64,000 nucleotides of DNA from Escherichia coli (GTDB lineage: Bacteria; Pseudomonadota; Gammaproteobacteria; Enterobacterales; Enterobacteriaceae): NCBI RefSeq assembly GCF_001677475.2, contig NZ_CP015229.1. One strand, given 5' to 3'. Of the stretch, positions 51,901 to 54,900 are shown piece by piece. Within the stretch, counting starts at the first letter, position 1; every line of letters starts with the position of its first letter. A program made the position numbers.

Positions 51901-54900
51901 TGCGGTGACAGCAGATTGCCGATAATCAACAGCGCGAGGCCAACCAGTTGAATGGGTACGGCACGCCAGATAAAGCGCGGTTCGGTCGGATCTTTAACGA
52001 AACGCGCCACGATGGCATTCGCGACAATCACCGCGCCGAACACCGGAACCTGTGTCCAGGCGAACTGCGAGGTCGTTAAGCCGCCTGCGTCAATCAGGAT
52101 CACCGGCGAGACAGCCACCCAACTCATCATGGGGATATAGCTTAAAGAGATGGTTGCTGCGCCAAAGAGGAACAGCCGATTGCAAAAGACATTACGAAAA
52201 TCGCGCAAGACGCTTTTGGCGCTAAATGGAACCGCGCCGCGCTTCACCGTCTCTGGCATCGCCAGCAGTAAGCCAACAAATGAGATAAACCCCATAACCG
52301 CAATGATGGCAAAAAGGACTTTCCAGTGCACAAAGTGCATCAGAGCTGCGCCGGAAAGCGGGCCAATAATCGGCGCAATCAGTACGATGGAGGTGATAAT
52401 CGCCATCAACTTGATCCCTTTTGTCTGTCCGAACGCCTCCTGCACCGTGACATAACCAACGGTGGCAATAAAACAGATACTGGTGCCCTGAATTGCACGC
52501 GCGATAAGAAACTGTGTCATAGATGTTGTGAACATTGTCGCGGCGCAGGCAAGGGTAAATATTAGCGCCCCGGTAATCAGCACCGGCCTGCGGCCAATCC
52601 TGTCGGAAAGCGGCCCCAGCAGCCACTGTAACGCCATACCGCCCGCGAGATAGAGACTGACGGCAGCCGGAGCCAGACTGACATCGGCATTAAAATCACG
52701 GACCACATTAATGATCCCCGGCTGGATCAGATCCGTCGACAGGTACGCGGCAAAGTCATACAAAATCAACGCCATCGGGAAAAACAGCGTGGCGGCATGG
52801 CGGGCAAAAAAACGTGGCATAACAAACAACTCCTTGTCCGGAGAACCCCAACGGGGAAAACGAAATTCAATACCGTCGGTAATGACGAAAGGCAGGCGAG
52901 AAGGACAAATGTACTGAATTTCATGTAATCAACCACACTGCCTGTGAACACACAGACAGAGAAATACCTTCTGACCCCAGGTCAGAATGTATAACGATTA
53001 CAAATAGTCATCAGCACATTACACCTCTTGAATTGATGGGTTGCATAGAAAATATACACCTTAAGTGTAATTAAAATTTGCGGTTAATCAAAAGAGCGCG
53101 GTGGAAAGGGGAATATCTGCCTGGTACAGGAAATGTAAAACGCGAGCCTGTTTCCGGAAAAATGTATCGTTTGCAGACGAACAAAAATAGCCTGGAAAGC
53201 GCCTCGGGGAACGGGAAATTGCCGGGTGAGAATGGTTTTGTTAGTCGCTAAAGTCGGGCCATCTTATCAACAGGTGACGGATCGCCATGACAATCTTCAC
53301 GACCAGCACGCCGCATGACGCATTATTTAAGTCCTTTCTCACGCACCCTGACACCGCGCGGGATTTTATGGAGATCCACTTACCCAAAGATTTACGTGAA
53401 CTGTGCGATCTCGACAGCTTAAAACTGGAATCCGCCAGCTTTGTCGATGAAAAATTGCGGGCGCTACATTCCGATATTCTGTGGTCGGTAAAGACCCGCG
53501 AAGGCGATGGCTATATTTATGTGGTGATTGAACATCAGAGCCGCGAGGATATTCATATGGCCTTTCGCCTGATGCGCTATTCTATGGCGGTGATGCAGCG
53601 CCATATCGAGCATGATAAACGCCGGCCGCTACCGCTGGTCATCCCGATGCTGTTTTATCACGGTAGTCGTAGTCCTTACCCCTGGTCCCTGTGCTGGTTG
53701 GACGAATTTGCCGACCCGACTACCGCACGGAAAGTTTATAACGCCGCGTTCCCGCTGGTGGATATCACTGTCGTGCCAGACGACGAGATTGTGCAGCACC
53801 GCAGAGTCGCCCTGTTGGAGTTGATCCAAAAGCATATACGCCAGCGCGATCTAATGGGGCTTATTGATCAACTGGCAGTATTACTGGTTACAGGGTGCGC
53901 TAATGACAGCCAGATAACCGCGCTGTTAAATTACATTTTACTGGCTGGCGATGAAGCGAGTTTTAAAGAGTTTATCTGCGAACTAACCAGTCGAATGCCA
54001 CAACACAGGGAGCGAATAATGACGATTGCAGAGCGAATTCATAATGATGGATGGCTGTTGGGAAGGGAGAGGGGGAGGAAAGAAGGGAAAAAAGAAGGGG
54101 AACAGAGCTTCCTCCGATTGTTGTTGCAGAATGGGGCAGATCCTGAATGGATACAGCGATATACCGGACTTTCGGCAGAGCAAATGCAGGCATTAGATCA
54201 GCCCTTGCCTGAAAGCAAGCGCGATCCATGGATCGAGTACTAATCAGAGACTGATGACAAACGCAAAGCAGCCTGATGCGCTACGCTTATCAGGTCTACA
54301 TAACCCATTCAATATATTGAACTTTAAAGATTTTGTAGACCTGGTAAGGCGTTCACATGGCATCCGGCATGAACAAAGCGCACTTTGACTAAGCCATGCT
54401 GGAACGTGGCGATGACCCTGCAAAGATAAAACGAGTCACACGCTATTCGTGAGAGTAAATCAGGGGCCTCGCCACTAATTCGAAATTATTCTATTGCCCG
54501 ATACACGGCCTCGCCAATTTGCTTCAGTGCTACGCGATAGGTTTCGCTGAGCGGCAAAGCGCAGTTGATACGCAGACAATTACGGTATTTACCGGAAGCC
54601 GAGAAAATCGAGCCTGCCGCCACCTGGATTTTCATGCGGTACAGCTGCCGCGCGACGCAGACCATATCGACCTGTTCAGGCAATTCGATCCACAGTAAAA
54701 ATCCGCCTTTCGGGCGCGTAATACAGATTTCGCAGGGAAAATATTCCCGTATCCAGCAGGTATAAAGCGCCAGATTGCGCTGATAAGTCTGCCGCATCCG
54801 CCGGATATGGCGATGATAGTGACCTTCCAGCACAAACGTTGCCGCCGCCATTTGCGTGGACGGCACATTAAAGCTGCTGATGGCGTATTTCATATGCATC

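Follow-up and report, generated by a model that had tools for sequence, protein, structure and literature searches.

An intact rpnD gene in an Escherichia coli chromosome and its predicted nuclease and antitoxin products

The rpn genes have been described as genes-within-genes in which the full-length product, RpnL, is a toxic nuclease (Zhong et al. 2023, PMC10400941). A shorter product, RpnS, is made from an internal start, corresponds to the C-terminal tail of RpnL, and binds RpnL to block it (PMC10400941). The internal start of rpnA was validated as AAGGAG-N6-ATG at M244, and an internal transcription start was reported for all rpn genes (PMC10400941). Neutralization of a cognate RpnL by RpnS has been shown for RpnA, RpnB, RpnC, and RpnP2 only (PMC10400941). 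Among strains, RpnS varies by four-residue repeats that begin 8–20 residues after the methionine, and the addition of one repeat to RpnC-S or RpnC-LS broke cross-neutralization (Zhong et al. 2023, PMC10400941). The same study reported that rpn genes cluster with defence genes and demonstrated an antiphage effect, directed against T-even phages, only for the plasmid-encoded RpnP2. No antiphage test of any RpnD allele was found in the cited Rpn literature.

RpnA (YhgA) is the biochemically characterized exemplar of the family. The purified protein is a Mg2+-dependent, Ca2+-stimulated, non-specific DNA endonuclease whose activity is altered by mutation of D11, D63, E82, Q84, R94, or a PDDE motif (PMC5350276). 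For rpnD itself, Kingston et al. worked in 2015 and 2017 with yjiPc, a version of the K-12 gene in which the stop codon had been repaired. Induction of the repaired yjiP caused toxicity, and RecA-independent recombination rose about 5-fold (PMC4498929). Overexpression of rpnD also induced an SOS reporter, while basal recombination was unchanged by deletion of the four active K-12 rpn genes (PMC5350276). With these systems as a reference, the rpnD locus of a further E. coli strain is considered below in terms of its integrity, its nuclease domain, and its internal start.

The rpnD locus and its K-12 counterpart

The window, a 64,000-nucleotide stretch of an E. coli chromosome (NZ_CP015229.1), contains a single uninterrupted open reading frame at 53287–54243 on the plus strand, with an ATG start and no internal stop. 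This full-length rpnD (formerly yjiP) comprises 318 codons plus a stop and encodes RpnD-L, the long nuclease/toxin form. The sequence-only reading had described a single intact rpnD of this length at the same position, and an open reading frame listing, direct inspection of the sequence, and RefSeq annotation in relatives all agree with it; three other E. coli genomes have rpnD annotated from this start and at this length of 957 nt. Two genes on the minus strand serve as synteny anchors and are also the neighbours of rpnD in K-12 and other strains: mdtM upstream (51588–52829), a 413-aa MFS transporter frame, and yjiR downstream (54486–55898), a 470-aa GntR/aminotransferase frame. The order mdtM-rpnD-yjiR is common to the window, K-12, six further RefSeq genomes, and two contigs that encode the identical protein. 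More broadly, mdtM adjoins rpnD in most of the sampled E. coli lineages, and both mdtM and yjiR flank it in most. Judged by its position between mdtM and yjiR and its high sequence identity to K-12 rpnD, the window gene is an ordinary intact chromosomal E. coli rpnD, orthologous to the K-12 pseudogene b4584 (yjiP).

The exact 318-aa protein is already catalogued at NCBI, for example as ANO92259.1, and at least 24 public E. coli contigs encode it. Two of these contig loci were compared to the window and were identical at 6957/6957 and 6955/6957 bases. In the complete-genome collection, from which this lineage is absent, the best match to the window reached only 96.5–98%. An origin in an Escherichia species other than E. 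coli had been entertained on account of that value and was rejected given the 6957/6957 match to public E. coli assemblies.

In the K-12 reference genome (NC_000913), rpnD (b4584) is annotated as a pseudogene at 4568998–4569918, and the rpnD gene of a K-12-like RefSeq genome carries an 'internal stop' note. Translation of the K-12 interval produced a single internal stop at codon 104. In a DNA alignment, codon 104 (53596–53598, plus strand) is CAG (Gln) in the window versus an amber TAG in K-12, where it is the only disabling change; the K-12 translation and population counts identify the same codon. The 103-aa fragment that precedes the stop has a database entry named 'YjiP protein / putative pseudogene'. 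The earlier claim that the K-12 locus is interrupted is thus borne out by both the annotation and the internal stop in NC_000913.

Apart from the amber codon, the two genes share their mdtM/yjiR flanks, their catalytic residues, and an internal Shine-Dalgarno sequence with an ATG. DNA identity is ~95%, and the window protein is 91% identical to the repaired K-12 RpnD. Within the first 244 codons the K-12 gene has 12 other substitutions, and its extreme C-terminus is divergent. In addition, 36 in-frame nucleotides in the C-terminal region of the window gene (about 54053–54088) are without a K-12 counterpart.

The nuclease domain

The Pfam profile PF04754 matched residues 8–210 (53308–53916, plus strand) with an E-value of 1.7e-86 and a score of 289.5 bits (cut-off, 21), and the match spans positions 1–202 of the 203 in the profile. 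The NCBIfam model for the Rpn family, TIGR01784, was also passed (169.7 bits vs a cut-off of 52.1). The protein may therefore be placed in the Rpn / YhgA-like family on a full-length profile match, and its Transposase_31 / YhgA-like domain would contain the PD-(D/E)XK nuclease core. K-12 RpnA, a paralogue encoded at another locus, is 55% identical to the window protein from end to end. The RpnA equivalog model (NCBIfam NF007361) scored 378.8 bits, below its cut-off of 583 bits, and the assignment of the window gene as RpnA itself was rejected in favour of a paralogue.

Residues that matter for RpnA function were located in an alignment of 27 homologues reaching Citrobacter, Klebsiella, and Salmonella. 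D11, D63, E82, Q84, R94, and the PDDE motif are all present in the window RpnD, each invariant or nearly so in the alignment, and the five individual residues carry the same numbering in both proteins. The codon for D11 (53317–53319, plus strand) aligns with D11 of RpnA, where a D11A substitution led to the loss of all three in vivo phenotypes (PMC5350276). D63 (53473–53475, plus strand), a PD-(D/E)XK catalytic aspartate, is invariant, and RpnA D63A had no activity in vivo or in vitro (PMC5350276). The (D/E)XK-equivalent motif E82-H83-Q84 (53530–53538, plus strand) has glutamine in place of lysine, which is a feature of the Rpn family; E82 and H83 are invariant, Q84 is conserved in at least 90% of the homologues, and the RpnA E82A and Q84K substitutions were inactive (PMC5350276). 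Lastly, the PDDE motif P164-D165-D166-E167 (53776–53787, plus strand) is invariant at its first three positions and is shared with RpnA, in which D165A in the equivalent motif was hyperactive (PMC5350276).

Purifying selection acts on the nuclease domain (dN/dS ~0.14). Over its 244 codons, comparison of the window with eight other alleles yielded dN/dS values of 0.10–0.19, and the mean over all pairs was 0.136. The last 46 codons evolve faster, with a dN/dS of 0.5–0.6 against the K-12-type tail.

An AlphaFold2 model calculated from the 27-sequence alignment was of low confidence (mean pLDDT = 55.9, pTM = 0.43). Within this low-confidence model, residues 34–124 present an alpha-beta-beta-beta-alpha-beta order that fits a PD-(D/E)XK fold, with mean pLDDT values of ~55–87 over ten-residue blocks. 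A Foldseek search of the same low-confidence model against the PDB identified no structure at E <= 0.001, its hits being non-significant matches to unrelated folds (best E = 0.06, TM-scores <=0.18) that were discarded as uninformative, and a phmmer search of full-length RpnD against PDB sequences identified none at E <= 0.01.

Alignment with K-12 yjiP and with RpnA had been proposed as a check on the sequence-only reading, which would have fallen had K-12 carried the same intact frame or had the catalytic core of the window copy been disrupted. Neither is the case: the window copy is intact relative to K-12, and its core is undamaged. The suggestion that the strain may retain an active RpnD is thus well supported by inference from the family match, the identity to RpnA, the undamaged catalytic core, the selection on the nuclease domain, and the phenotypes of the repaired K-12 allele. 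By analogy with the paralogues and with the repaired K-12 allele, the window RpnD would be expected to possess nuclease activity and toxicity and to be subject to antitoxin action, and it may have an antiphage role.

The predicted internal start and the four-residue repeat tract

The word 'active' is to be qualified, since the nuclease of an Rpn gene is masked by RpnS, an antitoxin encoded within the same gene, and the signals for RpnS production are conserved in the window. A Shine-Dalgarno-like AGGGAG (54007–54012, plus strand) lies 6 nt before an internal ATG and is the counterpart of the AAGGAG-N6-ATG of rpnA. The hexamer is AGGGAG in eight of the nine rpnD alleles compared and AGAGAG in that of O157. 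The internal ATG itself, M245 (54019–54021), aligns with RpnA M244, and this methionine is invariant in the 27 homologues; RpnA thus has its internal start at the equivalent methionine, also behind a Shine-Dalgarno-like hexamer. From M245, an in-frame internal frame of 74 residues (rpnD-S; 54019–54243, plus strand) is predicted to be translated as an antitoxin/oligomerization domain.

In a direct pairwise comparison, the predicted RpnD-S was 33% identical to the RpnA-S crystal chain (PDB: 7TH0, E = 6e-9); in a PDB sequence search, RpnA itself retrieves 7TH0. Precomputed Pfam data place the family PF27070 (HTH_Rpn_C) over the RpnD-S region with a match marked as faint, and a scan of the 74-residue C-terminal part alone against a local copy of Pfam found no family.

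A candidate promoter for a short rpnD-S transcript was identified in a consensus scan at 53903–53932 on the plus strand, ~90 nt upstream of the internal start. It consists of ATGACA-N18-TAAATT with a TG-extended -10 element. The scan returned three sites where 2.1 were expected, which is about background, so the match is weak when taken alone. Neither hexamer varies among the nine rpnD alleles, and rpnA has a similar pair at the same spacing. Conservation of these hexamers could stem simply from coding constraint. If the candidate is genuine, it would agree with the report that transcription starts internally in every rpn gene.

A tract of four-residue repeats occupies the hypervariable C-terminal specificity helix described by Zhong et al. 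(2023). In the window it comprises five units (20 residues, aa. 256–275; 54052–54111, plus strand), as judged from alignments, and three of these units, the 36 nt at ~54053–54088, are those without a K-12 counterpart, where only two units are present. The tract begins at residue 12 of RpnD-S, within the range of 8–20 described for RpnS. In relation to RpnA, which has no repeat insertion, it appears as a 12-residue gap in the alignment. By sequence, the extra 36 nt of the window are repeat variation of the kind described previously (PMC10400941). The sequence-only reading had not mentioned these three additional repeats.

The alleles may be ordered by repeat number. K-12 and an ST69 strain have two units (YIKG-EQRI) in a protein of 306 aa, and a cluster named E. 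albertii (P0027) has three (WLLG-REEG-EQHI) in 310 aa. Strains APEC20/16 and 98197 have four (WLLG-MEKG-KEEG-EQRL) in 314 aa, the window has five in 318 aa, and cluster P0026 has six (WLLG-REEG-RSEG-KEEG-KEEG-EQRL) in 321 aa. The lengths of public RpnD proteins step accordingly by four residues, namely 306, 310, 314, 318, and 322 aa, with six units corresponding to 321–322 aa. The RpnD of strain 2017.15.02CC matches that of the window in length and number of repeats; within the tract, the fourth unit shows a K to E change and the last unit F to L. WP_032176849.1 is among the other public 318-aa alleles. Tandem Repeats Finder detected no array at 53900–54300: the 12-nt units have diverged too far in DNA sequence, and only alignments of the proteins reveal the repeat.

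Taken together, the window rpnD is very probably an ordinary gene that works as an Rpn long-form nuclease with an internal short-form antitoxin. According to this model, RpnD-L would be a Mg2+-dependent PD-(D/E)XK DNA endonuclease with little sequence specificity that is toxic when unchecked. RpnD-S (74 aa) would be translated in frame from the internal ribosome-binding site and the ATG at M245, and would bind RpnD-L by way of the C-terminal helical domain that they share, thereby blocking it. The two products would thus constitute a gene-within-a-gene toxin-antitoxin, and the number of repeats in the first helix of the C-terminal domain would set which RpnD-S pairs with which RpnD-L.

Prevalence, alternative readings, and significance

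The distribution of the amber codon was assessed with a 55-mer probe that has the T of the TAG at position 28, such that every 28-nt megablast seed must span that base. The K-12 amber was found in 340 of 5,426 complete genomes; among the genomes listed, most were K-12 laboratory strains. The corresponding CAG 55-mer of the window matched at least 2,519 complete genomes, a lower bound since seeds are broken by nearby SNPs. Clusters of full-length proteins of 318 and 314 aa hold 3,918, 2,569, and 1,060 members. Among eight non-K-12 genomes that were sampled, six are annotated with an intact rpnD and two with pseudogenes whose lesions are independent: in O157:H7, a 25-nt tandem duplication directly after the internal ATG that is common to 279 genomes, and in strain FY10, a frameshift in a gene that adjoins an IS66 element. 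That E. coli normally has an intact rpnD, with K-12 as the exception, was reported by Kingston et al. (2015, PMC4498929). The counts and the eight-genome sample agree with that report; the present finding is correct and ordinary, and it restates what was published in 2015.

The strongest alternative is that the frame is intact but silent, either because it is not expressed or because RpnD-L is permanently neutralized by an excess of RpnD-S, such that the strain gains no activity over K-12. In MG1655, RpnA-L and RpnD-L were undetected under the conditions tested, all five short forms were detected, and short rpn transcripts were more abundant (PMC10400941). The lack of RpnD-L in that strain is expected from the amber codon. 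Silence would also fit the observation that deletion of rpnA-D had no effect on basal recombination (PMC5350276) and the persistence of a broken rpnD in the K-12 (340 genomes) and O157:H7 (279 genomes) lineages. However, purifying selection on the nuclease domain and the invariance of the catalytic residues imply that the long form is used enough to be kept, and an intact gene in six of eight sampled non-K-12 lineages points the same way. A silent gene is accordingly considered unlikely.

A second alternative, that rpnD encodes the transposase of a mobile element, stems from an old annotation as a 'Transposase_31 / ISNCY family transposase'. PF04754 is indeed named 'Putative transposase, YhgA-like', and the best-scoring NCBIfam model for the protein is the 'ISNCY family transposase' model NF007418. 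Its score of 389.8 bits falls short of the 583-bit cut-off, however, no terminal inverted repeats bracket rpnD, and the locus is conserved in most sampled strains beside mdtM, mostly between mdtM and yjiR. On these three grounds the ISNCY identity was rejected. Furthermore, RpnA is a nuclease without demonstrated strand-transfer activity (PMC5350276), and a section heading in Zhong et al. (2023) says of the rpn genes that they 'do not encode conventional transposases' (PMC10400941). A transposase is thus highly improbable. An artefactual origin of the intact frame, whether a lesion masked by faulty sequencing or assembly or a frame open by chance, can be set aside with near certainty, as the identical protein recurs in at least 24 independent contigs, one assembly is identical over all 6957 bases of the locus, the 90%-identity protein cluster that contains RpnD has 3,918 members, and the domain match is at 1.7e-86.

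With the reading of rpnD as a working Rpn nuclease and antitoxin gene preferred, its surroundings may be considered. Defence genes are located 2–10 kb downstream of rpnD in the form of a GmrSD enzyme and a type I restriction-modification island, in line with the published association of rpn and defence genes (PMC10400941). The plasmid-borne RpnP2-LS is of the same family, has the same gene-within-a-gene architecture, and is likewise associated with defence genes, whereas the window RpnD is encoded at a fixed position on the chromosome. RpnD had no match in PADLOC-DB v2.0.0, a 2023 library that may simply lack an Rpn model. An Rfam search returned only ES036, in a downstream palindromic repeat, at 27 bits relative to a gathering score of 37.6; this sub-threshold match is not considered real.

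A more speculative proposal is that the five-repeat RpnD, next to GmrSD and the type I restriction-modification genes at the edge of the Immigration Control Region, is a working chromosomal antiphage toxin-antitoxin. Its long and short forms would be insulated from RpnD-S with two, three, four, or six repeats, and the repeated loss of the long form in lineages that are successful would be a sign of the fitness cost of the nuclease. This proposal is tentative and is rated as rather unlikely. If true, the 25-nt duplication of O157:H7 and the amber codon of K-12, whose antitoxin is left as an orphan, would both be losses of the long form that reflect this cost. The work on RpnC and RpnP2 would then be extended to RpnD, without a new kind of system.

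The contrast between K-12 and the wild type, as well as the mechanism of the family, have already been published (PMC4498929, PMC5350276, PMC10400941), and the value of the present analysis is mainly one of correct annotation. Since K-12 is atypical at rpnD, conclusions drawn from it, such as the long form being undetectable, do not carry over to wild E. coli. As predicted from their rpnD sequences, most wild E. coli would be able to make the full RpnD nuclease. The strain considered here probably possesses a further working Rpn toxin-antitoxin next to the restriction island, and such a system could affect phage resistance or RecA-independent DNA exchange.

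Variants of the rpnD locus

In O157:H7 strain 2-6-2, a tandem duplication of 25 nt (GACGATTGCAGAGCGAATTCATAAT) has disabled rpnD (positions 501–1458 of the retrieved locus). The duplication sits immediately behind the internal ATG from which the predicted 74-aa antitoxin RpnD-S would be translated, its counterpart in the window being at about 54019–54050, and it shifts the reading frame of the long form as well as that of the small antitoxin. The duplication junction was found in 279 of the 5,426 complete genomes searched, and among the matches listed, the carriers were nearly all O157:H7.

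Two further arrangements were identified. In strain FY10 (1701–4075 of its locus), rpnD is frameshifted and an IS66-family element abuts the gene. An ST69 strain (1664–3929) carries an intact, K-12-type rpnD allele of 306 aa that directly follows yjiN, mdtM being absent there, and that is followed by DUF262/GmrSD fragments in place of yjiR.

Surroundings of rpnD in the window

A palindromic intergenic element (54262–54348) separates rpnD from yjiR, with arms at 54286–54303 and 54331–54348 that are 89% complementary. Because many E. coli genomes contain copies of about 84% identity at other, unannotated positions, the element resembles a dispersed REP-type repeat. When the element was compared with Rfam, the match to ES036 was below threshold (27 bits vs. 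a gathering score of 37.6).

Immediately past yjiR, a defence island occupies 56336–64000, and its gene content is unlike that of the Immigration Control Region of K-12. It begins with a GmrSD-type type IV restriction enzyme of 697 aa with a C-terminal DUF5655 domain (56336–58429, + strand), followed on the minus strand by the type I restriction-modification genes hsdS (59038–60798), hsdM (60798–62303), and hsdR (62334–63896 and beyond), the last of which has an EcoEI-type C-terminus and continues past the end of the window.

Upstream of rpnD, a very long ORF of 1,746 aa (37796–43036, − strand) corresponds to the inverse autotransporter gene that matching E. coli genomes carry as iatD. Across the 5,426 genomes, coverage of the 40–52 kb stretch reaches 80% or more in only 559; thus, this part of the window varies between strains.

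The K-12 amber codon and an orphan antitoxin

The K-12 rpnD lesion abolishes the long nuclease form only, leaving the internal start and RpnD-S unaffected, and K-12 therefore retains an orphan antitoxin. In MG1655, all five RpnS proteins have been detected (PMC10400941). The MG1655 amber codon lies at 6308–6310 of the retrieved K-12 locus and aligns with 53596–53598 in the window. The amber suppressor glnV44 (supE44) is expected to place Gln at this codon. Since the K-12 lesion is a CAG to TAG change, such an insertion should give the wild-type protein, and wild-type RpnD is predicted to be restored in K-12 derivatives that carry glnV44.
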